Positions 1,599-20,113 of a DNA stretch of 64,000 bases are shown in pieces; the stretch's first letter is position 1, and each line of letters begins with the position of its first letter. The notes under the pieces were generated by a model, which ran no database searches, was not told where the DNA came from, and saw only the letters and a list, made by a program, of their open reading frames with translations. The DNA comes from an uncultured Desulfovibrionaceae bacterium (GTDB lineage: Bacteria > Desulfobacterota > Desulfovibrionia > Desulfovibrionales > Desulfovibrionaceae), in contig CAZBER010000001.1 in the NCBI GenBank assembly GCA_964490985.1, positions 85,354-149,353 on the forward strand, written 5' to 3'. Position numbers and translations under genes: made by a program.

Positions 1599-2168
1599 TC
1601 AGCGCGCCCCGCTTTTGGCCAGCACCTTGTCCACATAGGCCCGGGTTTCCGGGATGTCCGGCACCCCGCCGGTCTTGGCCACGCGCCCGGGACCGGCATT
1701 GTAGGCGGCCAGGGCCAGGCGCGGGTCGCCGTAGGCATCGAGCAGGGACTTGAAATAGCGGATGCCGGCCTCCAGGTTGCGGGAGCCGTCAAAGGGATCG
1801 GCAAGGCCCAGGTCCTTGCCCGTGGCCGGCATGATCTGCATCAGCCCCTCGGCGCCCCGGGGCGAGACCGCGCCCAGGGAAAAGCCCGACTCCACTTCCA
1901 CCATGGCCCGGATCAGGTTCGGGTCCACGCCGTAGCGCCGGCTGTAGTAGCGGATAAAGGCCATGACCTTGGTTTGGTCCGCACCGCTTGGCAGGCGCAT
2001 GGAGTCAAAGGCCTGGTACTGCCTGTCCAGGCGGCGGTTGCTCAAATGGATGGTGCCCTTGGCGTCGCGGTACTGGTAGATGACCTGGGATTGGCCAAAG
2101 CAGGCCGTGGCCCCGGCCAAGAGGCAGCAGACCAAGGCAAGGCAGGCGGCCGGGCGACGGATGTCCAT
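1599..2168 (-). CDS. Lytic transglycosylase (SLT domain) with signal peptide and DUF4124-like N-terminus
   Basis: Motifs EVESGF, GLMQIMPATG and AYNAGPGRV are present. N-terminal signal is LALVCCLLAGATA. IYQYRDAKGTIHLSN resembles DUF4124. Confidence 0.85.
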   Translation of the reverse strand: MDIRRPAACLALVCCLLAGATACFGQSQVIYQYRDAKGTIHLSNRRLDRQYQAFDSMRLPSGADQTKVMAFIRYYSRRYGVDPNLIRAMVEVESGFSLGAVSPRGAEGLMQIMPATGKDLGLADPFDGSRNLEAGIRYFKSLLDAYGDPRLALAAYNAGPGRVAKTGGVPDIPETRAYVDKVLAKSGAR

Positions 2169-2317: not shown

Positions 2318-3745
2318 CTAACGCCTGAAGTCCAGGGCGAAATCGTGGATGGCCACGGTTTGGGTGCTCTCGCCCGTGCCTTCGGTCCAGCCGAAATAGA
2401 CGCGGTCCAGGCGGGCATGGTCGCTTCCGTCCAGGCGGGCCGTGTAATTGAGCTGGGGGCTTTCGGCCGCATAATCCCGGGTCACGTCGGCAAACTCCGC
2501 CCCTGCGCCATCGACCCAGGCCAGTACGGTGTAAACGCCCTGCCCGGCGTCGCCGGTGCGCCAGATTTCCAGGCGCATGGCATGCTCCTGGCCGTCTTCC
2601 AGCCAGTTGGAGCCGTGATCGGGCTTGGCGACCTCATAATAGCCGCCGCTGTCCGCGGCATTGGGATTGCGGGGCCTCGTGCCCACGCCATGCACGTTGT
2701 CGTCATTGCTCGTCGTGGTGCTGCCCCAAAAGACCACGGCCATGTGGTTGCTGTTGGAGTTGTCGCGCCTGGAGTTGATCCGCTCCGGCGGGTTGCTTCC
2801 CTTGTTGGGAAAGACGTCGACTTCCACGGCCATTTTCGGCGGCGCAATGCCCCGGCCGCTGGGTCCTGGGCCGGCATAGCCCAGGTATTCGCTCCGGAAA
2901 TCCGAGGCCGGACCGCCGGCGGCGAAGCCGGGATCGTTGTCGGCGGTCATGACCGTAAAGGTGAAGCCGTCACCCAGGTCCCCGGAATCATCGCTGTCGT
3001 CGTAACCGGAAAAAGAGAATCCGAAATAGGCCCGCAGGCCGTTGGCAAAGGCGCATTTCCCATCCAGGCAGGCGCCGTCCGGGCACACGCCATCCGGGCA
3101 GACGCCGTGGTCCCCGACATACCAGACAGCGCCGTGGGCATCGGCCACCCCGCCGCCCAGCCGCATCCAGCCGCTGTCGTAGCGGGAGACGTTTTCGGAC
3201 CAGAGGCTGGCCCACTCGGCTTCGGTAAAGCCCGGGGGCGCGGCGGACCGGTCCGAGGCGAAGATGAGGATGGCGTTGCGGTTGTTCGTGGTCTGTCCCA
3301 CCACGGGAAGCTGGAATCCGCCCAGGTCATTGGCGAAGGTGATGGGTCCCAGACCGGCGCGGCGGGCGGTCAGATGGATGTTGGTCTCTTGAGGAGTATT
3401 GGGAAAGGCGCGGCCCAGGCAACTGACGGTGTAGTATCCCGAGGCGTCGGGGCCGGACTCGGTCAGGGTAAAGGTGTCGCCGTTTACGTTGAAAACGCCG
3501 GTGCGTCCCTGCTGCCAGAAATTGAGGCCGGACAGGGCCAGGTAGTAGGCGCGTTGCTCATTGTATCCGGCAATGGTGGTCATGGCCGCACCAGGCGTCA
3601 GCGCGGCCACGGCGGCAGCCAGGGCGGAGAGGAGGACTAGGGCGGCGATGCAGTACAGGAGGACGGCGCCGGATTGGAGGCGGTACGGCGCAGACAATGG
3701 GCGCGGAAATGGATGGGGCGAGGCCACTCCGTTGCCGAAGACCAC
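2318..3745 (-). CDS. PilX_N-type minor-pilin-like protein with C-terminal L-type (legume-like) lectin / ConA-fold domain
   Basis: The N-terminus has a hydrophobic helix SGAVLLYCIAALVLLSALAAAV followed by EQRAYYLALSGLNF, which resembles PilX_N. C-terminal strings GDGFTFTVMTADN, MAVEVDVFPN, NHMAVVFWGS, VYTVLAWVDG and VYFGWTEGTGESTQTVAIHDFAL resemble legume-lectin strands. The start is GTG at 3745, with an alternative TTG at 3697. Confidence 0.7.
   Translation of the reverse strand: MVFGNGVASPHPFPRPLSAPYRLQSGAVLLYCIAALVLLSALAAAVAALTPGAAMTTIAGYNEQRAYYLALSGLNFWQQGRTGVFNVNGDTFTLTESGPDASGYYTVSCLGRAFPNTPQETNIHLTARRAGLGPITFANDLGGFQLPVVGQTTNNRNAILIFASDRSAAPPGFTEAEWASLWSENVSRYDSGWMRLGGGVADAHGAVWYVGDHGVCPDGVCPDGACLDGKCAFANGLRAYFGFSFSGYDDSDDSGDLGDGFTFTVMTADNDPGFAAGGPASDFRSEYLGYAGPGPSGRGIAPPKMAVEVDVFPNKGSNPPERINSRRDNSNSNHMAVVFWGSTTTSNDDNVHGVGTRPRNPNAADSGGYYEVAKPDHGSNWLEDGQEHAMRLEIWRTGDAGQGVYTVLAWVDGAGAEFADVTRDYAAESPQLNYTARLDGSDHARLDRVYFGWTEGTGESTQTVAIHDFALDFRR
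3059..3110 (-). repeat. In-frame 15-nt tandem repeat (about 3.5 units) encoding C-(P/L)-D-G-x pentapeptides
   Basis: On the plus strand: cccatccaggcaggc / gccgtccgggcacac / gccatccgggcagac / gccgtgg. It encodes HGVCPDGVCPDGACLDGKC inside the lectin-type protein. Confidence 0.8.
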
Positions 3746-4077
3746 TGCGCCTCCCGCCGCCGAGATACACCGGCAATGCCATATGCCGACGGCATGAAAT
3801 GATGGTGCCGCGATACTGTAACGGCACGGGAACGGCTATAAGATAGTAGAATCAGGAGAAAAGACAAGACACATTCAATTTATTTACATATAAATATAGA
3901 TATACTAAAAACGCATAAATGGCGTCATGCGGCTCCGAATCCATGCTTCTTGTTTATAGCAGCATACCTCCTGTAAAAAAGAGAACCGCTTTTTCCAAGC
4001 AGTCCAGGAAACGGAAAAAGCAACATACAATTGAGGCCGTCTAGAATTTGAAGGCTGGCAAAGACAGGATCAGGCAG

Positions 4078-5736
4078 TTATTGCCAGAATTTTGCAGCGT
4101 AGGCTGATTGGACAAATGTTGTGTCAACTTGGTTTACGTTATTGATAACGCCAATTAAGCTTGCAAACGACCCAATCAACTCGTTTTGATTCCCGAACGA
4201 AATATCGCCTTTGCTCAACATTCCGCCGAACCACAGGGCTTGGTTGCCCATGGATACCCTGCCGTGGCTTTCAATATAGACTTTGGCGGCAAGCGCCGGA
4301 TCGGCCTGATCAAACTTCTTCCAGGAAGAGCCGTCGGAGGAAATATAGATATCGTTGCTCCCGGAGATGTTCACATCTCCTTCCACTAAGATGGTGATGT
4401 AGCCCGTAGATACGTCGAGCTTGAGCGTCGATTGCCAGCCGAGGGTGAATGTTTTGAATTTAATGGCCTTTTCTGGAGATAGCGTCGGGTCTCCCGTCAA
4501 GACAATAGTATTTTTGCCATTATCGGTAACCGTTCCATAAGAACCTGGAGAATATTTATATGTTCCACTACTCCAATTCAGATTGCTGTTCGTTCCTCCG
4601 GCGGTGAACTCCGTACGCTTGGGAACCGACGGGATAGAGCAGGCATGGGGCGTATCAGGATCGATCAACGGTGGTTTTGAGGCATATTGCGTTTTCGTTC
4701 CATCCACGCGGAGATAGCTTGAGTTCGAAGTAATGGTTCCACCGGCCACGGCATCACCTTTGATGCGCCCATTCCAGGTTCCCGTGATGTTGCCGCCGGC
4801 ATAGGCATTCTTTCCGATGATGCAGCCATTGTTCAGGGTGATGTTGCCCTTGGCCTTAACGTTGCCATTAATTTTTGAATTGTTGGACCCCAAGGTCACG
4901 CTTCCCCCAGCATTGACATCACCTTGCACCACGGCTTCGTTTTGCAACGTGACATTGCCGGTAGCCCGAATGCTCCCCACTACCGTGGCGCTGTTGCTGC
5001 CCACGATCACGTCACCCGTGGCATCGATATCGCCGCCAACGGAAGTCTGGTTTTGCAGGCTGACATCTCCCTGGGCGCAGACGTATCCGCCAACAGTGGC
5101 ATGATTGACCAGAGTGACATTACCGGAAGAAAGTACCTTGCCGGAGACCGAAGATTGGTTGCTTAAGGTGACGCCGTTTCCGACGATATCGCCAGTCACG
5201 GTCTGTTGATTAGAAAGCGTAAGGTTTCCGCCATAGGAGCCCAGGACATAGTCTGACGGAGAGATATGGCCAGGAGGAGAGGGATCTTCGCCGCTATCTG
5301 GATTGGATTGCGATGTAAAAGTCACACTGGCAATTCTGAAGCTTGCTTCCGCACCCGTGGCGCTATTGACCACTCCCTCGACAGTCGCCATGTAATTTGG
5401 CGGTGGTGTAGCTGCATTTGAAACAAATAGTTTAAATTGAGAATTTCCATTCAAGGCATAGGTACTATTTTTTCCAAGCAAGCTGGCAACATCCGTTTGT
5501 GTTAGGGACTTGACGTAATTGAGTCCAGACAACGCAACATAATACGCCTGTTGCTCTCGTTCGCCAGTCAATTTTTCCTGCAGCGACGAAGAACTCATGA
5601 CGGCTATTCCTGCGCCGATGGCCCCCAGCAAGGTCAATGCCGCCACAATATACAACAGCGCCGCGCCGCTGGTATTCAATGCAAACCACCCACATCCGTA
5701 CCTCAGGAAAGCGCTCCGAAACAGCCTTTGTTTCAT
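4078..5736 (-). CDS. PilX_N-type minor-pilin-like protein with bactofilin-like beta-helix repeat module
   Basis: The N-terminus SGAALLYIVAALTLLGAIGAGIAV + EQQAYYVALSGLNY is paralogous to 2318..3745. Residues about 165-340 are degenerate ~18-20-aa repeats (GDIVGNGVTLSNQSSVSGKVLSSGNVTLVNHATVGGYV...GDVNAGGSVTLGSNNSKINGNVKAKGNITL). ATG start. Low G+C (25/60 at 4081-4140). Confidence 0.7.
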   Translation of the reverse strand: MKQRLFRSAFLRYGCGWFALNTSGAALLYIVAALTLLGAIGAGIAVMSSSSLQEKLTGEREQQAYYVALSGLNYVKSLTQTDVASLLGKNSTYALNGNSQFKLFVSNAATPPPNYMATVEGVVNSATGAEASFRIASVTFTSQSNPDSGEDPSPPGHISPSDYVLGSYGGNLTLSNQQTVTGDIVGNGVTLSNQSSVSGKVLSSGNVTLVNHATVGGYVCAQGDVSLQNQTSVGGDIDATGDVIVGSNSATVVGSIRATGNVTLQNEAVVQGDVNAGGSVTLGSNNSKINGNVKAKGNITLNNGCIIGKNAYAGGNITGTWNGRIKGDAVAGGTITSNSSYLRVDGTKTQYASKPPLIDPDTPHACSIPSVPKRTEFTAGGTNSNLNWSSGTYKYSPGSYGTVTDNGKNTIVLTGDPTLSPEKAIKFKTFTLGWQSTLKLDVSTGYITILVEGDVNISGSNDIYISSDGSSWKKFDQADPALAAKVYIESHGRVSMGNQALWFGGMLSKGDISFGNQNELIGSFASLIGVINNVNQVDTTFVQSAYAAKFWQ

Positions 5737-5746
5737 GGCTTCCCCC

Positions 5747-6259
5747 CTACTGAATCTTGTTGATGGCCACGCGTGTGGAAAACGTTTTAGTCACGCCTGG
5801 TTCCCAACTCGTACCATGCATAATCAATGTCACGCCAATAATGCTTGTGGTAGCGCTATTAAAACTGGAACTCGCGGCCCCATCATACGTATCGTAATAC
5901 TGAAATAGCAAGCCGTTATCCGCCAGTTCATCCGCCAAGATAAAATTTTGTCCGCCTTCACTGTACAGCAATGCAGTGCCGCTTTGTGAAATGGTATGTT
6001 GGCCGATCCCCGACGTACCATACGTCAAACTGGTGCCGGTCCCGCTCGTTGAGCCCGGAGTAAGGTAAGTGAATTCAATGGTCATCCGGTTGAGCGCCAT
6101 CTGCGCCTTTTGGGCTACTTCGTCGGAACTGCGGGCCTGCAAATACCCTCCCAAAACGGATTGCAGCATCTCGGTTCCGCCTATCCCCAGCAGGGCAAGG
6201 ATAACCAGCACCGCGATCATTTCGATGAGGGTAAACCCGCAAGTAAATTTCTTCCTCAT
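5747..6259 (-). CDS. Pseudopilin with prepilin N-terminal cleavage/methylation motif (GspJ/PulJ-like)
   Basis: MRKKFTCG/FTLIEMIAVLVILALLG. ATG at 6259; the ORF track starts at an upstream GTG (6277). 10-nt gap to the next gene. Confidence 0.7.
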   Translation of the reverse strand: MRKKFTCGFTLIEMIAVLVILALLGIGGTEMLQSVLGGYLQARSSDEVAQKAQMALNRMTIEFTYLTPGSTSGTGTSLTYGTSGIGQHTISQSGTALLYSEGGQNFILADELADNGLLFQYYDTYDGAASSSFNSATTSIIGVTLIMHGTSWEPGVTKTFSTRVAINKIQ

Positions 6260-6289
6260 CGCCTTGCCCTTGCCCACAGTATTCTCTGA

Positions 6290-6721
6290 CTATTGTTTGG
6301 AAAACAGATAGGTCAAGCTGACCCCGGTGCTGGAAGACGGCTTTATCGTGACCAGCAGATATTGAGGGCTGGCCCCGGTATCGTCCACAAAGGCATTTTC
6401 CGAGAGCTTAACGTATTTATTCACGGATACATAATAGGAAGAACCCGTCGGCGCGTAGCCCGTCGTGATCGTGCTGCCGGCCGCGCCGATCTTCGTCTTC
6501 AAGCCATCGAGGTTGGCCTTATAGTTCTTGGTGTAATCCTGAATCATGTTCTCCAGGACCTGCTGCAAGGCGGCATCGGTCTGCAGTTGGCTGATGGGCA
6601 CGTCCGTCCGCGTCACCCCAACGTTGAAATATGCCATCGCCATGGCAGCCAGTATGCCAAGCAGCACCAGCGTGGCGATGACCTCTATGAGCGTGAAGCC
6701 GCGCGAATGATGGGATGTCAT
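6290..6721 (-). CDS. Pseudopilin (prepilin N-methylation motif)
   Basis: MTSHHSRG/FTLIEVIATLVLLGILAAMA. ATGA overlap with the upstream gene. Confidence 0.75.
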   Translation of the reverse strand: MTSHHSRGFTLIEVIATLVLLGILAAMAMAYFNVGVTRTDVPISQLQTDAALQQVLENMIQDYTKNYKANLDGLKTKIGAAGSTITTGYAPTGSSYYVSVNKYVKLSENAFVDDTGASPQYLLVTIKPSSSTGVSLTYLFSKQ

Positions 6722-7218
6722 GGAATGAATCCCGTATACGGCGTGATGGTCACGTTCACGCCGGCCGATTGCGTTACCATGATAGTCTGAGGCGTGGTGA
6801 CCTGCACGGGGGACTGGGTGGCGGGATCGGTGATCTGGTTCGATACCGGCTCACCGCGCCAGTCGAACCGGATCGTCGTGCCTGCCCCGGTGGTGATGGA
6901 TACGCCGCTTGGCAAGGTGCGCGTCGCCCCAGTGCCGCCCGGCAGCACCGCGCCATTGACGTTGGGGTTGTCCTCGACAAGGGTGTAGGAGTTTCCGCCG
7001 ATGGAGATGCCCCAGGTGTAGATGTCGGCCATGGCCCGGACCTGGGCATAGCGCAGGGCCGCCTTGAGGGCCTCGGCCTCGGCCACGGCCGAGGCGTTGG
7101 TCTTGGAAAATTTCACCGTAGCCACGGCCGCCAGAATGCCTAGGAGCAACAGTACGACTACGGCTTCGATTATTGTGAAACCGCCGTCAGGCTTCCTCTT
7201 TCGGGCAACGCACGACAT
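6718..7218 (-). CDS. Pseudopilin, GspH/FimT-like
   Basis: MSCVARKRKPDGG/FTIIEAVVVLLLLGILAAVA, then AEALKAALRYAQVRAM, which is typical of GspH/FimT-type minor pilins. Confidence 0.7.
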   Translation of the reverse strand: MSCVARKRKPDGGFTIIEAVVVLLLLGILAAVATVKFSKTNASAVAEAEALKAALRYAQVRAMADIYTWGISIGGNSYTLVEDNPNVNGAVLPGGTGATRTLPSGVSITTGAGTTIRFDWRGEPVSNQITDPATQSPVQVTTPQTIMVTQSAGVNVTITPYTGFIP

Positions 7219-7316: not shown

Positions 7317-7730
7317 CTATTTTTCATCAACATATAATGTAAAGGCTTGCGTCAATCCTGTTTCCAATGTGGCAACCCAGGCCGGACTGCCTTCGGCCAA
7401 GACCGTGGCCACGCAGGAACCGTCCGTGACACAGGCGTAATTTCCCCTGAAGTCCCCATACATCATAGTGGTGGCATCGGCCGCAGCCGACCAGTTATTG
7501 GCCACAGAAGGATCTGAAAGAAGCGCCTTGGAGTAATCCATGGTCGCCTGCGACGATATCGCTGCGAATGCGCCCTTGAGAGCTAGCGTCTGCGCATCCT
7601 TACGCAGATCGGTATATTTGGTCACAGCCACCGCAGCCAGTATTCCAACAATACTTAAAACAGTAATTATCTCTAAAAGAGTAAAACCCTGAGGGCCTTT
7701 CCTGGCGATATTCAGTGGTCGATTGCCCAT
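7317..7730 (-). CDS. Type IV pilin, paralog 2 (MshA/MshB-like), with a Cys pair
   Basis: MGNRPLNIARKGPQG/FTLLEIITVLSIVGILAAVAV. Clearly paralogous to 8011..8433. Contains YACVTDGSC. Confidence 0.8.
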   Translation of the reverse strand: MGNRPLNIARKGPQGFTLLEIITVLSIVGILAAVAVTKYTDLRKDAQTLALKGAFAAISSQATMDYSKALLSDPSVANNWSAAADATTMMYGDFRGNYACVTDGSCVATVLAEGSPAWVATLETGLTQAFTLYVDEK

Positions 7731-8010: not shown

Positions 8011-8433
8011 TTACTTTGTTTTTGTATAAATTGTAAAATTCTGCGTCGTAGTAAGTTTGGCTTTGGACTTGTCGAACCATGCTTCTGGACCGGAACCTGT
8101 CACGGCACCAGTAACCGTAGCTGCTACAACTCCATCCGCGTTTGTGTAGCTTCCCTTAAAATCGCCCACTGTCAAATCGGCGGCTGTCGTGGGTACTGTC
8201 CAGTTCTCGGCCTGGCTGGGGTCTTTCAGAATCGCTTGCGCGTAATCAAGAGACGCTTGGGACCCGATGGCGGCCAGGGCTCCCTGCACGGCCTTGTTCT
8301 GAGCCTCGGTCTGCATGTCCAGATACTTCGGCACGGCCACGGCGGCCAAGATACCCAGAATGACCAGCACCGCGATGATTTCGATGAGCGTGAAGCCGCC
8401 TTGCCCGCGCGCCCGTTTCTGCCGTTCGTCCAT
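8011..8433 (-). CDS. Type IV pilin, paralog 1 (likely major pilin)
   Basis: MDERQKRARGQG/FTLIEIIAVLVILGILAAVAVPKY. No Cys. GGAGG RBS. A sigma54-type promoter lies upstream. Confidence 0.85.
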   Translation of the reverse strand: MDERQKRARGQGGFTLIEIIAVLVILGILAAVAVPKYLDMQTEAQNKAVQGALAAIGSQASLDYAQAILKDPSQAENWTVPTTAADLTVGDFKGSYTNADGVVAATVTGAVTGSGPEAWFDKSKAKLTTTQNFTIYTKTK

Positions 8434-8509
8434 TTCCGTCTTCCTCCGTTTGGTTCGTGTTGCCTCGCGCCAGGGCGAACCGGCGCGTTGTCGCTATTCC
8501 CAAGCTCTA

Positions 8510-8525
8510 AGCAGAAATCATGCCG
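8510..8525 (-). promoter_or_regulatory. Sigma54 (-24/-12) promoter candidate for pilin paralog 1
   Basis: The minus strand reads cGGCATG-ATTT-CTGCT, with GG and GC exactly 12 nt apart as in TGGCACG-N4-TTGCW. It lies about 78 nt upstream of the ATG at 8433, directly downstream of a sigma54 activator gene. Confidence 0.6.
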
Positions 8526-8668
8526 ATTGCGTCATGGCTTTCCATCTTTTTCGCAACTGTTTGGATTCCAATCGTTTTCAAAATATCTCGCCGGGACGCG
8601 CAGGATTGTAGCCCGGCCAATGCTTCAAACTTTGCTGCTTTTCCGTCAAAAAATGCAGCATCACCGGC

Positions 8669-9976
8669 TCAGCTTTCCGGGGAAATCCGAAACGCGGCCG
8701 CCTCGATGCCCAGCTTTTTCACCCGATGCCACAGGCTGCGCTCCTTGATGCCGAGTAGCGTCGCCGCCCGGGCCTGGATGCCGCCCGTGCGCGACAGGGC
8801 CGCCTCGATCAGGGCCTTTTCATAGGCCGCCACCCGGCTGTCCAGGTCCCCGGCCGCGCCCACGGCCTCGGTCCGTATGGGCTCCGCCCCCAACCCAGGC
8901 AGGTGCTCCGGTCCGATAGGCCCGTCCCCGGCCAACACCCCGGCCCGTTCCATGACGTTTCTGAGCTCCCGGACATTGCCCGGCCAGTCATGGGCCAAAA
9001 GCCGCTGCAAGGCCGGAAGCGAAACCTCCCGCAGCCGGCCGGCCGCCTCCAGGAACCGCTCGGCCAGGAGGGCGATGTCCTCGCGCCGTTCCCGAAGCGG
9101 CGGCAGGCGGATGGGGAACACATTGAGGCGGTGATAGAGGTCTTCCCGGAAAAGCCCCTGCCCCATGCGCGCCATGAGGTTGCGATTGGTGGCGGCAATG
9201 ATGCGCACATCCAGGGCCACAGGGCGCGTTCCGCCCACCCGCTCGCACTCCCGCGTCTCCAGGACGCGCAGAATCTTGGCCTGGGTCTCGGGCGGCATGT
9301 CGCCGATCTCGTCCAAAAACAGCGTGCCGCCCTGGGCCTGCTCGAACTTGCCGATCTTGCGGGCCACGGCCCCGGTAAAAGCTCCCTTCTCATGGCCGAA
9401 AAGCTCGCTCTCCAGCAGACCCGAGGGAATGGCCGCGCAATTGACCGTCACGAACGGCCCCTTGGCCCGACCGCTTTTGGCATGGATGCCCCGGGCGGCC
9501 AGCTCCTTGCCCGAGCCGGATTCGCCGGTCAAAAGCACTGTGGCCTCGGTGGCGGCCACCTTGAGAATCTGGGAAAAGACGCCGCGCATGGCCCGGCTCT
9601 CCCCCACCATTTCCGGGAAAAGGGCCTTGGCTTCGAGTGCGCCGAGCACTTCCGCCACCTGGTCCACCATCTCCCCCAGCCGGTCGAACTCGCCGCGCGT
9701 CGCGCCCTGGGGTTGGCTCCGGGGAGCCAGGGCCGAGGCGGCGGTGGCCAGGAGGCGGCGCATGGGGCGCAAAAAGGCCCAGGCAAAGGCGCTGGCCACG
9801 ACATAGACCGCGACCCCGCAGATCATGGCCACGGCGGTTGTCCGGTCCCCCTCGGCCAGGGGCCGCCCCAGGGCGCGCAGGCCCCAATCCGCCGCGAAAA
9901 CGGCCAGGCTCCCCACGCCTCCCAGGATCAGGGGGGCCAGGATGGCCAGGTTCACGTCCACGCGCCGTTGCCACAT
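8669..9976 (-). CDS. Sigma54-dependent transcriptional activator with two N-terminal TM helices and no receiver domain; Fis-type HTH
   Basis: The AAA+ core has LLTGESGSGKELAARGIH, a canonical GAFTGA and ESELFGHEKGAFTGA. C-terminal HTH is ARAATLLGIKERSLWHRVKKLGI. N-terminal helices are ILAPLILGGVGSLAVFAA and AVAMICGVAVYVVASAFAWAF. Confidence 0.85.
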   Translation of the reverse strand: MWQRRVDVNLAILAPLILGGVGSLAVFAADWGLRALGRPLAEGDRTTAVAMICGVAVYVVASAFAWAFLRPMRRLLATAASALAPRSQPQGATRGEFDRLGEMVDQVAEVLGALEAKALFPEMVGESRAMRGVFSQILKVAATEATVLLTGESGSGKELAARGIHAKSGRAKGPFVTVNCAAIPSGLLESELFGHEKGAFTGAVARKIGKFEQAQGGTLFLDEIGDMPPETQAKILRVLETRECERVGGTRPVALDVRIIAATNRNLMARMGQGLFREDLYHRLNVFPIRLPPLRERREDIALLAERFLEAAGRLREVSLPALQRLLAHDWPGNVRELRNVMERAGVLAGDGPIGPEHLPGLGAEPIRTEAVGAAGDLDSRVAAYEKALIEAALSRTGGIQARAATLLGIKERSLWHRVKKLGIEAAAFRISPES

Positions 9977-9982
9977 GACCGC

Positions 9983-11212
9983 CTACCGATGCATGGCCAC
10001 GTTGGTCATTTCCCACATGGGCATGAAGATGGCCAGGGCGAAAAAACCGACCACGCCGGCCAGCCCCACGATGAGCACCGGTCCCAGGGCGTCCGAAAGC
10101 CGTTTGACGGCATAGGCCACCTCGGCGTCGTAGTGTTCGCTGATGGCCCCCAGCATCTCGTCCAGGTTGCCCGACTCCTCGCCCACGGCCACCATGGTCA
10201 CCACCATGGGCGTAAAATATCTGGCATGAGAAAGTGGACCGGCCAAACCTTGTCCGGCCCGGATTCGCTCCTGTATTTTTCTGAATTCCCTGGCTATGGC
10301 CGCATTGCCGATGGTGCCGACCAGGATGTCGATGGTGGTCAGCACAGGCACGCCGCTGGCCTGGAGAATGGCGAAGATGGAGGCAAAGCGGGACATGGCC
10401 GATTTTTTGAAAAGCGGCCCTATGGCGGGAATGAACAGGAAAAAGGCGTCCCGGCTGACCTTGCCGTTCTCGGTGCGAAACCACAGGGTCAGGGAGACTG
10501 CCACGGCGGCGATGATGCCGAAGGTGACGTACCAGTAGTCGGCAATGATGACGTTGAGCGTCATGGCCACCTTGGTCGGCCAGGGCAGCTCGATTTTGGC
10601 CGAGGCGAACATCCTGGCGAAGACCGGCACCACAAAGGTCAGCAGGAAGAAAAACGCCCCCACCAGGGCCACGACCACGGTGATGGGATATTGCAGGGCC
10701 GATTTGATGTCGGATTTGACCTGGTGTTCGTGGGCGATGATGTAGATCAGGCGTTCGAGCACCTGGGGCAGGGCTCCGGCTGCTTCGCCGGCCCGCACCA
10801 TGCTTACATAAAGTTCGGAAAAAACCCGCTTGTGCGCGGCCAGGGCATCGGAGATGGACGCCCCCTTTTTGACGTCGTCGGACATCTGGCCGCAAATCTT
10901 GCGGATTTTCGCGTTCTCGGTCTGCTGCTCCAGGACATTCAAGATTTCCAGCATGGACAGGCCGGCAGCCAGCATGGTTCGCAACTGCTTGGTGAAAAGG
11001 ATCAACTCCTGGGCCTTGACCGACGTCAGGCGGGTGGACAGGTTGTCGAAAAAGCCGCCGCCCGCGGCAGCCGCCCCGCCCTGGGACACGGCCACAGGGA
11101 TATAGCCCAGGCCGGCCAGGCGGTTTTTGGCCGCATCCGCGGTTTCGGCCTCGATCTCGCCGGTGATGGTGTTTCCGGCCTCGTTTATGGCCTCATAGGC
11201 AAATTGCGGCAC
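9983..11212 (-). CDS. GspF/PilC/MshG-type inner-membrane platform protein
   Basis: 409 aa starting (M)PQFAYEAINEAGNTITGEIEAE, a typical T2SSF N-terminus. Two T2SSF repeats with TM segments. GTG start at 11212. Confidence 0.85.
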   Translation of the reverse strand: MPQFAYEAINEAGNTITGEIEAETADAAKNRLAGLGYIPVAVSQGGAAAAGGGFFDNLSTRLTSVKAQELILFTKQLRTMLAAGLSMLEILNVLEQQTENAKIRKICGQMSDDVKKGASISDALAAHKRVFSELYVSMVRAGEAAGALPQVLERLIYIIAHEHQVKSDIKSALQYPITVVVALVGAFFFLLTFVVPVFARMFASAKIELPWPTKVAMTLNVIIADYWYVTFGIIAAVAVSLTLWFRTENGKVSRDAFFLFIPAIGPLFKKSAMSRFASIFAILQASGVPVLTTIDILVGTIGNAAIAREFRKIQERIRAGQGLAGPLSHARYFTPMVVTMVAVGEESGNLDEMLGAISEHYDAEVAYAVKRLSDALGPVLIVGLAGVVGFFALAIFMPMWEMTNVAMHR

Positions 11213-11232
11213 ATACGCCTCGCTGTCCCGGG

Positions 11233-12939
11233 TTAGACCATGACCGCCGAAGAGGCTTCCTCAAAGGTGGTCTGGCCTTCCAAAATCTTGAGTCGGGCGT
11301 CGTCCTTGAGGAGCTTGAGCCGGCCCGTGTCCGCCGCGAACCGGGTGATCTCCTGGGCGGTGCGCCGCTTGACGATCATATCCTGGATGTCCTCGTCAAT
11401 GGCCAGGATTTCAAAAAGCCCCACCCGGCCCTTGAATCCGCTGTCCCCGCACAGATAGCAGCCCCGGCCCCGCTTAAACGGGGTGGCCACACCCTCCAGG
11501 CCCCAGAAGCGCAACACCTCGGGCCGCGGCGTGTATTCCTCGGCGCAGTGGGGGCAGATGCGCCGCACCAGGCGCTGGGCCATGGACACCACCAGCACCG
11601 AGGAGACCAGAAACGGCTCGATGCCCATGTCCATGAGCCGCACAATGGCCCCGGCCGCATCGTTGGTGTGCACGGTGGAGAGCACCTTGTGGCCGGTCAG
11701 GGCCGCCTGGGTGGCGATGGAGGCGGTTTCGGCGTCGCGGATTTCGCCCACCAGCACCACGTCCGGGTCCTGACGCAGGGCCGAGCGCAAGCCGCTGGCA
11801 AAGGTCATGCCGGCCTTGCGGTTAAGCTGCACCTGGCGCACCCCCTCCATGCGGTATTCCACCGGGTCCTCAAGGGTGAGGACGTTGATGTCCGGCCGGT
11901 TGATTTCACGCAGGAGCGCAAAAAGCGTGGTGGACTTGCCCGAGCCCGTGGGACCGGTGGCCAAGAACATGCCGTAGGGCTTTTCCACCACCAGCCGGAT
12001 TTTGGCCAGATTCTCCCCGGAAAGGCTCAAGTCGGCCAGGGTCAGGCCGCCCGCGCTCATGTCCAGCAGGCGCAGCACCAGGTTTTCGCCGTGGATGGTG
12101 GGCAGGGTGGACACGCGGACGTTGATCTCCTTGTTGTCCATGGACACGGTGAACCGCCCGTCCTGGGGAATGCGGCTGACCGCGATGTCTAAGCGGCCCA
12201 GGATCTTGATGCGCGAAATAATGGGCAGGATCATGGGCTTTGGCGGCGAGGGCACGGATTTGAGCCGGCCGTCGATGCGCAGGCGAATCTGGACCTGGTC
12301 GCGCTCGGGACTGATGTGCACGTCGCTGGCCCCCTCGCGCACGGCCTGGGAGAGCAGCGAATTGACGAAGCGCACCACCGGGGCCTCGCCGGCCATGTCC
12401 TCCAGGGAGGACACCCGCACGTCGTCGGCCCGGCCCACCTGGGACTCGTCCCCATCCTCGCGCATGGACTCGATGCTTTCCAGCACCCCTTCGATGCCCG
12501 CACCCATGCCGTAGATGGCGCTGGTCAATTGCGCCAGCTCCCGCTCCGTGCAGATGACCGGCTCCACCTCGCAGTTTTTGTAGATTTCGATGTCCTCAAT
12601 GGCCAGGATATCCATGGGATCGGTCATGGCCACCCGGATGAGCGACCCTTCCTTGGACAGGGGCACGAGCTTGCTGCGCAGGGCCATTTCCGCCGGGATC
12701 AGCTCGGCCAGGCTCGAATCCACGGGGTAGCGGTCAGGCGTGTACTTGGCCAGGTTCATCTGGCGGCTGATGAGGTCGACAATGTCGGATTCCCGCACCA
12801 TGCCCTGGCGCACGAGCTGTTGTCCGAGCTTGACGCCGCTGCGCTTGCCCGCGGCCAGGGCCTGGCGCACCTCGTCCTCGGTGATCAGTCCGGCGGCCAC
12901 GAGCATCTCGCCGAGGCGCAATCGCTTCCTGGGCTCCAT
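11233..12939 (-). CDS. MshE/GspE/PilB-family secretion ATPase with N-terminal MshEN (c-di-GMP-binding type) domain
   Basis: Walker A is GPTGSGKSTTL. Also present: LVGEIRD, TGHKVLSTVHT and the tetracysteine CPHC...CYLC. The N-terminus has RLGEMLVAAGLITEDEVRQALAAG-KRSGV-KLGQQLVRQGMVRESDIVDLISRQ. Confidence 0.9.
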   Translation of the reverse strand: MEPRKRLRLGEMLVAAGLITEDEVRQALAAGKRSGVKLGQQLVRQGMVRESDIVDLISRQMNLAKYTPDRYPVDSSLAELIPAEMALRSKLVPLSKEGSLIRVAMTDPMDILAIEDIEIYKNCEVEPVICTERELAQLTSAIYGMGAGIEGVLESIESMREDGDESQVGRADDVRVSSLEDMAGEAPVVRFVNSLLSQAVREGASDVHISPERDQVQIRLRIDGRLKSVPSPPKPMILPIISRIKILGRLDIAVSRIPQDGRFTVSMDNKEINVRVSTLPTIHGENLVLRLLDMSAGGLTLADLSLSGENLAKIRLVVEKPYGMFLATGPTGSGKSTTLFALLREINRPDINVLTLEDPVEYRMEGVRQVQLNRKAGMTFASGLRSALRQDPDVVLVGEIRDAETASIATQAALTGHKVLSTVHTNDAAGAIVRLMDMGIEPFLVSSVLVVSMAQRLVRRICPHCAEEYTPRPEVLRFWGLEGVATPFKRGRGCYLCGDSGFKGRVGLFEILAIDEDIQDMIVKRRTAQEITRFAADTGRLKLLKDDARLKILEGQTTFEEASSAVMV

Positions 12940-12965: not shown

Positions 12966-14708
12966 CTACGGCTTCTGGGCCGAAGCCAGCCGGGGACCCG
13001 GGGCGTCCGTTCCGGCCAACCTGGCCAGCGGCCGTTTGCCGGACCTGTCACGCAAGTCCGTGAAATAGATCGTTCCCTGGGGATAGTGTTCCACCAGGCG
13101 CGCCCCACCGGCAAGTTCCGGCGGCAAGGCGGCCAGGGCCGCGGCGGCTGCCGGGCGGTCCGCAAAGACTTTCTCGACCATGACCTCGAAATGCAGGCCC
13201 GAGCCGGGCTGGAAGGTGGTGAAAAGGCCCAGCCCCGGCCAGCCGGCCCGGCTTGCAGCCAAAAAGGCAAACCCCGCCTCCAGGCTTTGGGCCTGCCCCA
13301 CCGCGATCAGGCACGACCCGGGCGGCAGGGGCGCGGCCTCGATGGCCGGGAAGACGATGCCCTCGCCGGCGCGCAGGCGGTCCAAGTTCACATGGGGGTT
13401 GGCCTTGGCCACCAGGGCCAGGATGCGCAAATCGCCGCAGCCGTAGAGCCGGGCCGCCTGCCGGCTGACGCTCCAGCCCGGCAGGACCGGGCTCGAACCC
13501 AGCGCGGCCGGGACGGCCGGGACGGCGGACGCATCGGCCACGGGGCCGGCATTGGCCGGCTTGCCCGGGGCCGGGAATGTGGCGGCTGCGGCCCAGGCCG
13601 CTTCCTGGAGGGTTTGGGCCGGCTCGGGCGCGGCCGCAGGAGCCGGCGTATCCGTGGCCAGGCGCTCGGAAGCGGCCTGGACCGCGACGATCGGCGGCGA
13701 CACCGGCTCCGGCGCGTTGGCGGTCGGCGGGACCGGATCGACCTGTTGGACAGCCGGGACCGGCGGCACGGCATTGAAATCCTGGCGCAGCCCGAAGAGC
13801 CAGTCCGATCCGACCATGGCCACGGCCAAAGCCAGGCCGCCAAGGCCGGCAGCCAGAGAGATGCGGCGCGGCCAGACGGCGGCCTGTCCTTGCAGCTCCC
13901 GGGCGGCGCGCCCCACCAGCCGCCAGCCGATGCGCCGGCGGCCAAGGCCCACGGCCAGAAGCATGGACGAATGGCACAGGCGCACGATTTTTCGCGGATA
14001 GCCGCGCGTCAGGCCATGGATGCGCCGCAGAGCCAGGGGGGTAAGCAGGGCCGGAGCCTGGCCGTCCGGCGCGCACCGGGCCAGCCGGGCGGCGATCATG
14101 CGGCTGGTCTGGCAGCGGTCAAGGGGCGTAAGCCTGTAGCGGAAATTGACCCGGTCCTCCAGGTTCGGCCGGGAGGCAAGCACGTGCTCGAATTCCTTTT
14201 GGGCGAAAATGACGATCTGCAGGAGCTTGTGGGTGTTGGTCTCGAAATTGAGCAGTTCCCGCAACAGCTCCAGACACTGGCCAGAGAGCTTTTGCCCTTC
14301 ATCGATAATAAGCGTTACGGTCTTGCCGCCGTCCACGCCCTGGCGCAACAGCGCGTCCTTAAGCGCCTCCCGAAGCCGGCCCGGGTCCCCTTCCAGGCCC
14401 GCCACATCCAGGCCGAAAAGCCGGGCCAGGGCCAAGAGGAACTGGCCCGGGCCAGGAAAATGCGGGTCGTCGAGCAGGTATACCGCCAGCGTCGGGTCCT
14501 GGCCGAGGATACGGATGAGTTCCCGGGCCAGGGTGGTCTTGCCCGTGCCCACATCGCCCAACACCACATTGAGGCCCCGGCGCAGGCGCACGGCGATCTC
14601 CATATGCCGCAGGCACTCCAGGTGGTTTTTGGCTGCGTAGAGCAGCTCCGGGTCCGGGGAGTTGGAAAAGGGTTCCCGGACAAGCCCCAGGCATTGGTAG
14701 TAACTCAT
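12966..14708 (-). CDS. ExeA/MshM-like AAA ATPase with TM segment, Pro/Ala-rich linker and LysM/FimV-like plus SPOR-like C-terminus
   Basis: ATG at 14708 gives MSYYQCLGLVREPFSNSPDP...VVLGDVGTGKTTL...LIIDEGQKL, which is ExeA-like. TM segment is ISLAAGLGGLALAVAMVG. The 1033-aa ORF in the track is a composite. Confidence 0.8.
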   Translation of the reverse strand: MSYYQCLGLVREPFSNSPDPELLYAAKNHLECLRHMEIAVRLRRGLNVVLGDVGTGKTTLARELIRILGQDPTLAVYLLDDPHFPGPGQFLLALARLFGLDVAGLEGDPGRLREALKDALLRQGVDGGKTVTLIIDEGQKLSGQCLELLRELLNFETNTHKLLQIVIFAQKEFEHVLASRPNLEDRVNFRYRLTPLDRCQTSRMIAARLARCAPDGQAPALLTPLALRRIHGLTRGYPRKIVRLCHSSMLLAVGLGRRRIGWRLVGRAARELQGQAAVWPRRISLAAGLGGLALAVAMVGSDWLFGLRQDFNAVPPVPAVQQVDPVPPTANAPEPVSPPIVAVQAASERLATDTPAPAAAPEPAQTLQEAAWAAAATFPAPGKPANAGPVADASAVPAVPAALGSSPVLPGWSVSRQAARLYGCGDLRILALVAKANPHVNLDRLRAGEGIVFPAIEAAPLPPGSCLIAVGQAQSLEAGFAFLAASRAGWPGLGLFTTFQPGSGLHFEVMVEKVFADRPAAAAALAALPPELAGGARLVEHYPQGTIYFTDLRDRSGKRPLARLAGTDAPGPRLASAQKP

Positions 14709-14719
14709 GGCGACCTCGG

Positions 14720-16735
14720 TCAGGGCCTGGCCAGCTCGACCGGCGCGGCCGGAGCGCTGGCCCGTTCCACCACGGGCGGGGCCGGGGCAATGGGTTTTTC
14801 CTTGAGAATGGTGGGCGTGACGAAAATCAGGATGTCCTCGCGCAGCACATCCTTGGATTTGGACTTGAACGCCCAGCCCAGGCCCGGAATATCGCGCAGA
14901 AACGGCACCCCGGATTCGCCGTCCGTGACCGTATCCCGGGTCAGGCCCGAGATGACGATGGTGTCGCCGTCCTCCACCACCAGGGTGGAACGGGTCTCCC
15001 GCTTGAAGATGGGCGGGTTGCCCTGGACCCAGTTGTTCTGGTTGGCGTCCACCTGGTCGTCTTTGACCACGATCTTCATGCGCAGGTTGGTCCCGTCGAT
15101 GACGTGGGGCAGCATCTCCAGGCGCAGCAGGGCGTCGGCGAACTGCACGTTGGTGCCGTTTTGCGAGGTGGACACGTACGGAATTTTCTTGCCGTTTTCC
15201 GTGTAGGCCAGCTTGTTCTCCATGGTGGTGATGGTGGGGCTGGACAGGATTTTGACCTTGCTCTCTTCGGCCAGGGCCGTGAGCTGGGCTTCGAGCACGC
15301 TCTCGCCGATCTTGCCGAACAGGAAATTGAGGCCCATGCCCGAGGAGCCCAGGCCGTTGGCCGTGGTGGTCAGGTTGGCCGGGAAGTTGAGGCCGAATCC
15401 CTGGCCGGACATGCCGCCGCCGAAGTACGGCGTGGCCGCTCCGGACACGGTGTTGGTGCCTGGCGCGGACGCCCCGGCCGTGGCGTTGTTCCAGGGATCG
15501 AGATTGTAGATGTTCTTGCCGAAGGGGCCGGTCACGCTGGTGGGCCAGTAGGTGACGGTCTGGCCGGTGAGCGGATTGATGATGGCCGCCGAGCCGCCGG
15601 TGATGTTGTATTGGCTGCTTTGGGCCGAGTAGGTGGCGCCGGCCTTGGCCGGAGCCACGATGAGACTGTTGCCGTTGGCGGCATGGGCGTGCATCAGCCC
15701 GCCCCACTGGATGCCGAGCTGCTGGGCCGTTTCCCGGCTGGTCTGGACGATGAACGCCTTGAGCCGGATCTGGGGACGCGGCTGATCGAGCTTTTCGATG
15801 AGCTTGATCATCTTCTCGGCATCCTCCCGAGACGCCTGGATGACCAGGGAGTTGCTGTAATGGTCCGGGATGACGAAGCCCTTGAGCAGGCCCATCTTGT
15901 AGTCGCCCAGGGCCGGCAAGGCCGGGGTCGGGGCGCTGCCGGGATTGGAGACATCGATGTTGGTGGTTCGCTTGGCCTCGTTGGCATTTCCGGTCAGTCC
16001 GGAAACGATTTCCTCGACCGAACCTTCCTTTTTGTTGAGGCCCGGCATGGCGCTGGTATTGCCGCACAGGGCATTGAGCGTCACGGCCAGCTCGTCCAGG
16101 TCCGCGAAATTCACTTCCACCTTGCAGGTGTCGTAGGGCTCCAGCTCCTTGGCCTTGACCGTCTCGGCGGCCAGCTTGTTGCGGGCTTCCTTGAGCTTGT
16201 TCTGCTTGTCCATGTCCTCCAGGGTCATGACCCGGACAATGTCGCCCTCCGCCACATAGGCCAGGCCGTTGGAGGCGAGCAAGCTCTGGAAGGTTTCGTC
16301 CCAGGGGGCGTCAACCACGTTGACGTTGACCAGAAGCGGCTTGCCGTCCTTGGCCGCGCCGCCCGCGCCGGGAATGGACGAGGACAGGACCAGATTCTGG
16401 TTGGCGGCCCGGGCCATGGCCCGCAGCACGGCCACCAGGTCCGTGTCGTACATGCGAAGCGTCACCTTCTGCTTGGGCAGGGGCTTGGGCGGCTTGGCCT
16501 CGGCCTTTTCCTCTTTTTTCGCGGTGACGGCGGTCTTTTCGAATTCCACCTTGCGCGGCCGGGCTGTTGGCGAATAGCCCTGGGAATTCTCGGACTGGGT
16601 CTGCCAGTGCTCGATAAAGGCGTCTTTTTGCGGCTTTTTGGCGCAGCCCGCAAACGTAAGCCCCAGGCAGGCCAGGACCATGACGACGCCCAAAGCGCGT
16701 CTCCGACATCCCATAACCGTGGCGAAACGCCGCAT
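14720..16735 (-). CDS. Secretin (MshL/PilQ/GspD family), lipoprotein
   Basis: MRRFATVMGCRRRALGVVMVLACLGLTFAGC contains a lipobox. A secretin_N-like KVTLRMYDTDLVAVLRAMA is present. The C-terminal signature is VPFLRDIPGLGWAFKSKSK...ILIFVTPTIL. The ORF track starts at an upstream GTG (16765). Confidence 0.9.
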   Translation of the reverse strand: MRRFATVMGCRRRALGVVMVLACLGLTFAGCAKKPQKDAFIEHWQTQSENSQGYSPTARPRKVEFEKTAVTAKKEEKAEAKPPKPLPKQKVTLRMYDTDLVAVLRAMARAANQNLVLSSSIPGAGGAAKDGKPLLVNVNVVDAPWDETFQSLLASNGLAYVAEGDIVRVMTLEDMDKQNKLKEARNKLAAETVKAKELEPYDTCKVEVNFADLDELAVTLNALCGNTSAMPGLNKKEGSVEEIVSGLTGNANEAKRTTNIDVSNPGSAPTPALPALGDYKMGLLKGFVIPDHYSNSLVIQASREDAEKMIKLIEKLDQPRPQIRLKAFIVQTSRETAQQLGIQWGGLMHAHAANGNSLIVAPAKAGATYSAQSSQYNITGGSAAIINPLTGQTVTYWPTSVTGPFGKNIYNLDPWNNATAGASAPGTNTVSGAATPYFGGGMSGQGFGLNFPANLTTTANGLGSSGMGLNFLFGKIGESVLEAQLTALAEESKVKILSSPTITTMENKLAYTENGKKIPYVSTSQNGTNVQFADALLRLEMLPHVIDGTNLRMKIVVKDDQVDANQNNWVQGNPPIFKRETRSTLVVEDGDTIVISGLTRDTVTDGESGVPFLRDIPGLGWAFKSKSKDVLREDILIFVTPTILKEKPIAPAPPVVERASAPAAPVELARP

Positions 16736-16773
16736 ACTCGCTCCAAAGGCGCGCCCGCGGGGCACGCCATGGC

Positions 16774-17268
16774 TTAACGGGCCAAGGCCTCCTGACCCTC
16801 GTAAGGAACCGACACCCGATTGCCGCTGGCCAGGCTTTCCAGGGTCACCCGATCCGGAGAAATTTCCACCACCTTGTACCCGCCGCCCTCCAGGCTGTCG
16901 CCGACTTGGTATTCAAAGCCGTCCACCACGGCCAGCCGGCCCGAACCCAGTTCCACATAGCCCATGTACCGGGGCAGGGCCGCGGGCTTGGCCGCCACCG
17001 CTTTGCTCTCCAGGGGCTTGTCGTACAAGGCCCCGGCCGGCCAGGGCCGGGCAATGGCCACCAGCAACGCTTCCTCGGTCTTGGCCGGAGTGGCGGCCTG
17101 GATGGCCTGGAGCATGCCCGTGACCTGGGCCGCGCCTGGGCCGCCCGCCTGTCCGGTGGCAACCCCGGGCGGGGCCGGGGCCGGGCCGTTTCCCACAAAC
17201 AGGGAACCCAGCCCAAGCACGGCCACCACGCCTGTTGCCGCCAGGATGATCTTTTCACGCCGGGTCAT
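16774..17268 (-). CDS. PilP/GspC(HR)-like pilus assembly protein (MshK position)
   Basis: One N-terminal TM, an Ala/Pro linker and a C-terminal beta domain GYVELGSGRLAVVDGFEYQVGDSLEGGGYKVVEISPDRVTL. Confidence 0.55.
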   Translation of the reverse strand: MTRREKIILAATGVVAVLGLGSLFVGNGPAPAPPGVATGQAGGPGAAQVTGMLQAIQAATPAKTEEALLVAIARPWPAGALYDKPLESKAVAAKPAALPRYMGYVELGSGRLAVVDGFEYQVGDSLEGGGYKVVEISPDRVTLESLASGNRVSVPYEGQEALAR

Positions 17269-17289
17269 GGCACCCTTCCCCCAGACGGC

Positions 17290-17823: not shown

Positions 17824-17827
17824 GGGC

Positions 17828-20082: not shown

Positions 20083-20095
20083 TCATTTCACTCCT

Positions 20096-20113
20096 TATCG
20101 TTACATAACGATA
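20096..20113. promoter_or_regulatory. Perfect palindrome TATCGTTA-CA-TAACGATA (candidate operator)
   Basis: 8-bp arms with a 2-nt spacer, located 14-31 nt upstream of the HTH gene ATG and just 5' of its RBS. Followed by a partial third half-site, actatcg. Confidence 0.5.

Follow-up and report, generated by a model that had tools for sequence, protein, structure and literature searches.

The stretch analysed here (the window: 64,000 nucleotides, positions 85,354 to 149,353 of contig CAZBER010000001.1 in NCBI GenBank assembly GCA_964490985.1) comes from an uncultured Desulfovibrionaceae bacterium and encodes, close to its beginning and on the minus strand, a protein of 475 amino acids (open reading frame (ORF) 2318..3745). 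We propose, with a probability of about 0.72, that this protein is a bimodular minor pilin, in which a pilin module of the PilK/GspK/PilX class carries a Ca2+/Mn2+-dependent L-type lectin that would be displayed at the tip of a filament and bind glycan there. What the computation shows is the predicted fold, the conservation of residues of the metal and sugar sites, an anatomy that resembles that of pilins, and a gene order kept in relatives. The gene and the parts of its product are as follows (ORF B is the adjacent gene described further below; pLDDT, predicted local distance difference test):

2318..3745, minus strand: candidate modular minor pilin gene with a lectin module; GTG start, with the putative ribosome-binding site GGGAGG upstream
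3668..3745, minus strand: leader, residues 1-26, ending at Gly26; placed by the conservation of Gly26, N-terminal residue counts and pLDDT <50 at residues 1-21
3518..3667, minus strand: alpha-1 helix, residues 27-76, hydrophobic in its N-terminal half, with Tyr31 at +5 and EQRAYYLALSGLNF at its C-terminal end; placed by the AlphaFold2 model and identity to ORF B
3356..3499, minus strand: residues 83-130, predicted antiparallel sheet of four strands in the pilin-like module; AlphaFold2 model
2321..3355, minus strand: predicted L-type (legume-type) lectin module, residues 131-475; placed by Foldseek, the comparison of a profile with PDB and Pfam matches of relatives
3053..3100, minus strand: Cys-rich loop C216-C221-C226-C231 (CPDGV/CPDGA/CLDGK repeats), residues 216-231
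2957..2974, minus strand: GDGFTF, residues 258-263, corresponding to ADGxxF of legume lectins; placed by hidden Markov model (HMM) alignments with pea lectin, 2fmd and 7elv
2744..2824, minus strand: predicted metal-binding segment E308-V-D310-V-F312-P-N314...D328...H334, corresponding to legume VAVEFDTFxN...D...H (putative Mn2+/Ca2+ ligands)
2690..2704, minus strand: invariant family-specific DDNxH loop, residues 348-352
2372..2395, minus strand: FGWTEGTG, residues 451-458, corresponding to the legume (V/F)GFSA(A/T)TG strand

An earlier, sequence-only reading of this DNA had quoted six strand motifs from the protein, together with EQRAYYLALSGLNF, and all of them are present in the ORF. The position check in the translation puts EQRAYYLALSGLNF at residues 63-76 and the strands at residues 238-247 (RAYFGFSFSG), 258-266 (GDGFTFTVM), 305-314 (MAVEVDVFPN), 333-341 (NHMAVVFWG), 388-395 (HAMRLEIW), 404-413 (VYTVLAWVDG) and 449-471 (VYFGWTEGTG...FAL). 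The strand motifs are the most conserved columns both in a set of 41 relatives, 40 of which show 29-62% identity to the protein, and in 164 domain sequences sampled from 1,691 homologous clusters (50% identity), so they are not chance resemblances. The same reading had located the lectin region at 2321-3298 (residues 150-475); the region is indeed there, but the module begins about 20 residues earlier, at about residue 131 (nucleotide 3355, minus strand).

The C-terminal module

The C-terminal module is predicted, on structural modelling, to have the L-type (legume-type) lectin fold. In an AlphaFold2 model of the whole protein, computed on an alignment of relatives (pLDDT 85, predicted template modelling score 0.74), residues 131-475 form a beta-sandwich that follows a helix and a four-stranded sheet. 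When the model was compared with PDB by Foldseek, the best 50 matches were all L-type lectins, with E-values from 2e-7 to 6e-6, a probability of 1.00 and template modelling (TM) scores of 0.40-0.55 normalised on the lectin. They comprise legume lectins (pea, Centrolobium, Platypodium, Pterocarpus, soybean, peanut and others) and YwfG, the mannose-binding L-type lectin of Lactococcus, and many of these 50 neighbours have been solved with bound glycans. A profile built from 28 diverse sequences of the domain matched, within PDB, only legume lectins (7elv with E 5.8e-5, 2fmd with E 7.4e-4, and more weakly the pea, peanut and PAL lectins), and its alignments pair GDGFTF with ADGFTF, AVEVD with VAVEFDT and FGWTEGTG with FGFTGGTG. 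The L-type lectin or ConA-like fold that had been guessed from the strand pattern is thus borne out by both approaches. The corresponding Pfam check succeeded in part: PF18483 is matched by 18 of the 41 relatives (best E 5e-7) and PF00139 (Lectin_legB) by 5, all below the curated cut-off, while the 475-residue protein itself matches nothing and its lectin fragment (residues 132-475) taken alone has no match in Pfam or NCBIfam either.

A word-index homology search retrieved 79 proteins, mostly from Solidesulfovibrio and Desulfovibrio, among which the full-length orthologs are 48-61% identical to the query; about 12 of the 79 carry a precomputed match to PF18483 (L-type lectin), and one ortholog has already been named 'L-type lectin family protein' by NCBI. 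Two other identities were tried and rejected. A PDB search with the single sequence returned CmpD and an antibody chain, which were dismissed as noise, and a GH16-type glucanase, suggested by the E-x-D motif, was ruled out by the absence of the third catalytic Glu (EVDVFP) and by the structural neighbours, which are all lectins.

Predicted metal and sugar sites

The complete set of putative Mn/Ca ligands of legume lectins (E308, D310, F312, N314, D328 and H334) is present in the sequence and conserved. Among the 164 relatives, D310 is found in all, E308 in 160, H334 in 156, N314 in 148 and D328 in 146, and the position of F312 is aromatic in 150; the check for conserved metal-binding Asp/Asn that the sequence-only reading had proposed thus finds the putative ligands D310, N314 and D328. 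E308, D310 and F312 pair with VAVEFDTF of pea lectin, the last stretch of the printed pea alignment, while N314, D328 and H334 are residues that we take to be metal ligands from the alignments to 2fmd and 7elv together with the legume motif. Two positions of the sugar-binding triad, Asp259 and Asn314, are occupied as in legume lectins, and the third, a loop Gly, is Ser285. Asp259, which the HMM alignments place opposite Asp81, the sugar-binding Asp of pea lectin, is kept in 141/164 relatives, and the adjacent Gly260 in 162/164.

The domain is about 344 residues long versus about 235 in plant lectins, that is about 100 residues longer through insertions. Its family-specific features include C226 and C231 of a C-x4-C loop, each invariant in 163/164 relatives, for which a disulfide hairpin is one possibility, as well as DDNxH (residues 348-352), R391-x-E393, W340 and W410. 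The C-x4 units that precede C226/C231 vary among orthologs, which have from 2 to 4 Cys residues in this region.

The N-terminal module

The AlphaFold2 model shows a disordered leader and, directly after the conserved Gly26, a 50-residue helix (residues 27-76), followed by four antiparallel strands (residues 83-87, 90-97, 104-113 and 121-130) with pLDDT of about 95 in two separate runs. Helix and sheet together have the predicted 'lollipop' shape of a pilin. The putative prepilin-peptidase site (the arrow marks the predicted cut) is ...YRLQSG26↓AVLLYCIAALVLLSALAAAVAAL, also written RLQSG↓AVLLYCIAALVLL or RLQSG↓AVLLY, and shows the features of a class III-type signal, namely a short polar leader that ends in Gly and is followed by about 20 hydrophobic residues. 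Gly26 is conserved in at least 90% of the relatives, and the consensus of the cleavage site in 160 relatives is Q-[SRK]-G↓[SAF]-x-L-[LIV]-[YFTS]. The residue at +5 is Tyr31 in place of Glu; in the same 160 relatives this position holds Tyr in 50, Phe in 21, Thr in 17, Ser in 14 and Glu in 12, and the five pilins encoded upstream all have G↓FT(L/I)(I/L)E. Homologs of PilK are without exception devoid of Glu at +5 and are apical (PMC13533445).

Judged by these sequence features, the N-terminus appears to be a prepilin-like signal of the PilK/GspK/PilX class. The PilX_N-type N-terminus of the sequence-only reading stands as an architecture (Gly closes the leader, the helix that follows is hydrophobic, +5 is not Glu, and the model shows helix plus sheet) but not as a match to the PilX_N or N_methyl models: PilX_N is not matched by any of the 41 plus 10 relatives searched, and N_methyl is matched only by relatives with a canonical signal. 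In a fold search with the isolated module, the two longest matches were to pseudopilin entries of Pseudomonas, the XcpGHIJK model and XcpV/XcpW, with E-values of 0.1-0.6, which are not significant. The Xcp entries alone spanned most of the module; matches to methyltransferases and PUR-alpha were short and partial and were dismissed as chance.

The locus and its gene order

The gene lies in what appears, from its gene content, to be an MSHA-like type IV filament locus, composed of the following features:

1599..2168, minus strand: SLT lytic transglycosylase, directly downstream of the lectin gene
3746..4077, minus strand: AT-rich spacer of 332 nt (GC 0.45) upstream of the lectin gene, with two terminator-like hairpins
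4078..5736, minus strand: ORF B, second candidate PilK-class modular minor pilin, with a beta-solenoid module; SGAALLY, no Glu at +5
5747..6277, minus strand: GspJ-like minor pilin, GFTLIE
6290..6721, minus strand: minor pilin in the GspI position, GFTLIE
6718..7218, minus strand: GspH-like minor pilin (TIGR01708, E 1.4e-11)
7317..7730, minus strand: pilin (N_methyl)
8011..8433, minus strand: pilin, GspG/PilA-like, likely the major subunit
8669..9976, minus strand: sigma-54 enhancer-binding protein, between the platform and pilin genes; conserved in S. magneticus RS-1
9983..11212, minus strand: platform protein (T2SSF)
11233..12939, minus strand: assembly ATPase with an MshEN domain (T2SSE)
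12966..16067, minus strand: overlapping listed ORF of 1033 residues, with AAA_22 at residues 496-630
14720..16765, minus strand: secretin

In reality, the AAA_22 (MshM/ExeA-like) gene is probably far shorter than this ORF of 1033 residues. Further on, three ORFs at 16964-20206 (plus strand) have no Pfam match, and about 4 kb beyond the secretin, on the opposite strand (20438-21514, plus), there is a gene for a T2SSE-family ATPase of 358 residues, a PilT-like size, which could be a retraction ATPase.

The order found in the window, i.e. pilin, pilin, H-like, I-position, J-like, PilK-like ORF B, then the lectin gene and SLT, is shared by Solidesulfovibrio magneticus RS-1 and Desulfolutivibrio, with a solenoid PilK-like gene before the lectin gene, and the locus of Salidesulfovibrio is a reduced version of it, whose lectin protein has an extra LamG domain. 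The gene order is thus conserved across three genera. The lectin gene occupies the slot that belongs to mshQ in MSHA loci and to pilY1 in type IVa pilus loci. The sequence-only reading had called its product the last protein of the pilus locus, and it is the last pilin-like one; however, because the SLT gene is kept downstream of it in Solidesulfovibrio and Desulfolutivibrio, that gene probably belongs to the pilus locus as well.

ORF B encodes 552 residues, and its helix shares 50% identity with the helix of the lectin protein (E 7e-13). Its solenoid gives sub-threshold matches to Bactofilin, Ice_binding, pAdhesive_15 and DUF7305, and in S. magneticus (522 residues) and Desulfolutivibrio (579 residues) a homolog of it is encoded directly upstream of the lectin gene. 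Two apical-type subunits encoded in tandem are unusual. In Desulfolutivibrio sulfoxidireducens, two lectin-type genes stand in tandem after the solenoid gene (522 and 463 residues; 8102-9670 and 10001-11392 of locus sequence L004), which points to a tip lectin that has been duplicated and has diversified.

The hairpin-bearing, AT-rich spacer implies that the lectin gene may be a separate transcription unit, and gaps of comparable length between the ORF B and lectin genes (160-330 nt) occur in S. magneticus and Desulfolutivibrio. A scan with the consensus found no convincing -24/-12 sigma-54 promoter. One site with 2 mismatches upstream of the lectin gene (3795-3810, minus strand) was rejected, as it lacks the -12 GC and as 22 such sites were found genome-wide versus 36 expected. 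GC content is 0.51-0.56 (0.53-0.62 at third codon positions, GC3) in both pilin genes, the J-like gene and ORF B; native-looking values are found in the lectin gene (0.656, GC3 0.81), in the H-like gene (0.63) and in the genes on either flank (0.65-0.69). This mosaic suggests that a part of the pilin cassette, but not the lectin gene, has been replaced by recombination or transfer.

Proposed mode of action

Processing, tip location and sugar binding are the parts of the proposal that we infer. A prepilin peptidase would cleave the protein after Gly26, and the helix 27-76 would then dock, within the priming complex, with the minor pilins of GspH/I/J-like type; the MSHA-like filament would be built by a machine with an MshE-type ATPase, the platform protein and the secretin. 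We propose that the subunit takes the apical position in this complex because it lacks Glu at +5, and that the apical position would expose the lectin at the tip of the filament. There it might bind, in a Ca/Mn-dependent manner, exopolysaccharide, a surface glycan of another cell or a glycan of a host or plant, and the outcome would be sugar-specific attachment.

The lectin family and its carriers

An exhaustive HMM search among 1.84 billion cluster representatives (clusters at 50% identity) retrieved 1,691 proteins with E ≤ 1e-3, 269 of them with E ≤ 1e-30. Where a taxon is stated, members come from Desulfovibrionaceae, Desulfovibrio or a deltaproteobacterial metagenome-assembled genome. The types of carrier were judged on the best 150 of the 1,691 proteins plus the homologs found earlier. 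In this set an N-terminus of the PilK class is in the majority, a canonical GFTLIE prepilin signal is found in about 15-20 proteins, and an ordinary Sec signal in about 20. P0128 and relatives of the P0079 type carry the same lectin domain on canonical GFTLIE signals that score above the N_methyl cut-off, in other loci with MshE and T2SSF, and P0128 adjoins genes for MshE, T2SSF and AAA_22. That the lectin is fused time and again to pilin-type carriers within type IV filament loci is, among the indirect evidence for display on a filament, the strongest. The subset with Sec signals indicates that the domain is used off the pilus too; in P0081, P0085, P0104, P0110, P0122 and others, the Sec-type signal is followed by a conserved AAQKTIT(S/T)Y that replaces the pilin helix, often together with BACON.

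Many members have acquired additional modules (LamG, BACON, DUF2341, Gly_rich_2), and the names given to them in the source databases include 'LamG-like jellyroll fold domain-containing protein', 'BACON domain-containing carbohydrate-binding protein' and 'prepilin-type N-terminal cleavage/methylation domain-containing protein'. Some relatives with canonical pilin signals lack the Asp of the sugar site (AGFTF, YGFTF).

A bolder view, which we regard as doubtful, is that the protein is the member noticed first of a very large, essentially unannotated family, in which a metal-dependent legume-type lectin serves as a swappable 'warhead' on three carriers (PilK-class helix, canonical prepilin, Sec signal), often with LamG, BACON or DUF2341 extensions, and in which tandem alternative tips switch the target of adhesion. 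The two PilK-class genes in tandem raise the possibility of such alternative tips: two apical subunits, one with a beta-solenoid and the other with a lectin, might give a single machine different tips, and the targets could be switched, for instance, between partner cells or exopolysaccharides in anaerobic consortia.

Comparison with known systems

The protein has the architecture of a modular pilin, with a pilin-like module (residues 1-130) and a lectin module (residues 131-475). More than 1,200 modular pilins, some of them with PF13385 lectin modules, are described in a database survey (Raynaud et al. 2021, PMC8179133); as this survey, in its described design, required IPR012902/N_methyl, which is absent here, the present family would have been missed. 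Closest in principle is PilC of Streptococcus sanguinis, described as a tip-located modular minor pilin with a ConA-like, galectin-like module whose ligands are sialylated glycans and heparin oligosaccharide probes (PMC9934059). In both cases a lectin module of the ConA superfamily is grafted onto a pilin module, and the locus encodes a second modular pilin, which is PilB in S. sanguinis and the solenoid ORF B here; PilC is encoded in the pil locus and has been modelled at the pilus tip with other minor pilins. By that description, however, the signal peptide of PilC is a canonical class III one (IPR012902), an Ig-like module is present in addition, and the lectin is of the galectin-like type, whereas the protein studied here is of the PilK class (no Glu at +5, no N_methyl match), carries a legume-type lectin with a predicted Mn/Ca site and belongs to a diderm sulfate reducer. 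A PilX-named minor pilin with a predicted L-type-lectin-like C-terminal domain, as here, is PilX1 of Nanosynbacter lyticus TM7x: a 2024 bioRxiv preprint (PMC11623550) states that the AlphaFold model of this domain 'resembled L-type lectins' and proposes glycan-dependent binding. The remark in the sequence-only reading that no example of this combination is described in the lineage therefore holds for the lineage only, lectin-bearing modular pilins as such having been published (PMC9934059, PMC8179133, PMC11623550).

With legume lectins (pea, PAL, peanut, ConA; PF00139) and bacterial L-type domains (PF18483) the module shares the beta-sandwich fold and the motifs E-x-D-x-(F/Y)-x-N...D...H, the Asp of (A/G)DG(F)xF and the G(F/W)(S/T)xxTG strand. 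It differs from legume lectins by its insertions (helix 175-185, the C-x4-C loop and the DDNxH loop) and by a spacing between the ligand Asn and Asp of 14 residues, as opposed to about 5. Bacterial L-type lectin adhesins have been described on Gram-positive surface stalks, namely YwfG (7yl4-6, PMC9815576) and Aap/SasG/Pls (PMC9999234); in these adhesins too the domain stands at the end of a surface stalk, but the stalk is LPXTG-anchored, whereas here the domain is carried by a pilin module.

Similarities to the apical minor pilins GspK, PilX, PilK and MshP are the missing Glu at +5 and a gene that follows the I-/J-type genes, and these pilins and the tip adhesins PilY1, PilC and MshQ likewise place a large non-pilin domain on, or together with, the apical subunit (PMC13533445). 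The differences are that the protein has no GspK alpha-domain, no PilY1 beta-propeller and no match to PilX_N or T2SSK, and that, in contrast to the PilK plus PilY1/MshQ systems, the PilK-class helix itself carries the candidate adhesin domain in cis, with tandem genes for two subunits of this kind. Identity with PilY1 or MshQ itself was ruled out, as the Pfam scan shows neither a PilY1-type beta-propeller (IPR008707) nor the MshQ architecture (about 1200 residues), and the predicted fold is that of a lectin sandwich; the one analogy is the place of the gene, downstream of a PilK-like gene.

Alternative explanations

Several results weigh against the proposal of a tip-borne lectin pilin. On the lectin side, the protein has no match in Pfam and NCBIfam, whole or as separated halves, even at E ≤ 10, and its relatives score 20-28 bits against PF18483, whose cut-off is 78.3 bits; insertions of about 100 residues keep the TM-score to plant lectins at no more than about 0.5; and Ser285 occupies the position of pea Gly99, which contacts sugar through its backbone and is Gly in 146/164 relatives. 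On the pilin side, PilX_N (PF14341), N_methyl (PF07963/TIGR02532) and T2SSK/GspK gave no match at E ≤ 10 with either the protein or its fragment 1-135, and the fold search with the isolated N-terminal module (residues 1-135) gave no PDB match at E ≤ 0.001. In the locus, ORF B and the lectin gene are two PilK-class genes in tandem, so that either product might be the apical one, and the spacer 3746-4077, with hairpins at 4005-3983 and 3931-3912 (minus strand), parts the lectin gene from the pilin operon.

The protein might instead be a subunit of a pseudopilus like that of the type II secretion system (T2SS), its lectin facing the periplasm or the secretin and binding peptidoglycan, polysaccharide or glycosylated cargo in a role in secretion or assembly and not in attachment. 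We consider this unlikely. The MshEN domain of the ATPase is common to MSHA and T2SS ATPases, the best scores of the minor pilins are to Gsp models, the longest fold matches of the N-terminal module are T2SS pseudopilins (XcpV/XcpW and the XcpGHIJK model), and the locus contains genes for AAA_22 (ExeA/MshM-like) and the conserved SLT transglycosylase. On the other hand, two separate major-type pilins and a sigma-54 activator are present, as in pilus loci, whereas the T2SS-specific GspC/L/M and the GspK alpha-domain were not found in the Pfam and NCBIfam scans. The operon lacks a retraction ATPase, but a T2SSE ATPase of PilT size is encoded nearby on the other strand. Relatives also carry extra carbohydrate-binding modules (LamG, BACON, DUF2341), which are typical of outward-facing adhesins. 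That the protein is not a pilin at all, but a signal-anchored lectin of the inner membrane or periplasm whose gene merely stands beside pilus genes, is very improbable: the N_methyl and PilX_N models and Glu at +5 are indeed missing, the N-terminal fold search is not significant, the gene may have its own transcript and some relatives have ordinary Sec signals, but the conserved Gly stands exactly at the start of the helix, with a polar or basic residue in front of it, the helices of the protein and of its PilK-class neighbour ORF B share 50% identity, the adjacency to pilus genes is kept in three genera, the same lectin domain occurs on bona fide prepilin signals, and a missing Glu at +5 is the rule for PilK/GspK-class subunits.

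The remaining alternative accepts the filament and the fold but not the ligand, with the module binding a protein, a mineral or a metal surface, or acting as a structural cap that primes filament assembly. It would agree with Ser285 in place of the family's Gly at the sugar-contacting loop, with the large insertions and the invariant motifs that plant lectins lack (C-x4-C, DDNxH, RxExxR, W340, W410), with the loss of the Asp in some canonical-pilin relatives (AGFTF, YGFTF), and with the term 'noncanonical' applied to the lectin domains of staphylococcal Aap/SasG/Pls in the title of PMC9999234. We find it distinctly unlikely, as the Mn/Ca ligands and Asp259/Asn314 are kept in the protein and in 141-164 of the 164 relatives, a conservation difficult to account for if the canonical site were not used, and as the structural neighbours are all sugar-binding lectins, many of them with glycans bound.

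Conclusions

A lectin on a tip minor pilin is already established in Streptococcus sanguinis and has been proposed in Saccharibacteria; the principle being known, the present result extends it and does not overturn it. What is particular here is the PilK-class carrier, the legume-type metal site, the sulfate-reducer lineage and the large, under-annotated family. Since surveys of 'modular pilins' keyed on N_methyl miss PilK-class carriers, a widespread family of lectin-pilins has been left under-annotated. In sulfate-reducing bacteria, adhesion underlies biofilm formation and the colonisation of surfaces. No published study of their pilus adhesins was found in the literature searched, and the protein described here offers a concrete candidate: a pilus-borne lectin with a recognisable predicted metal and sugar site (D259, N314 and E308/D310).

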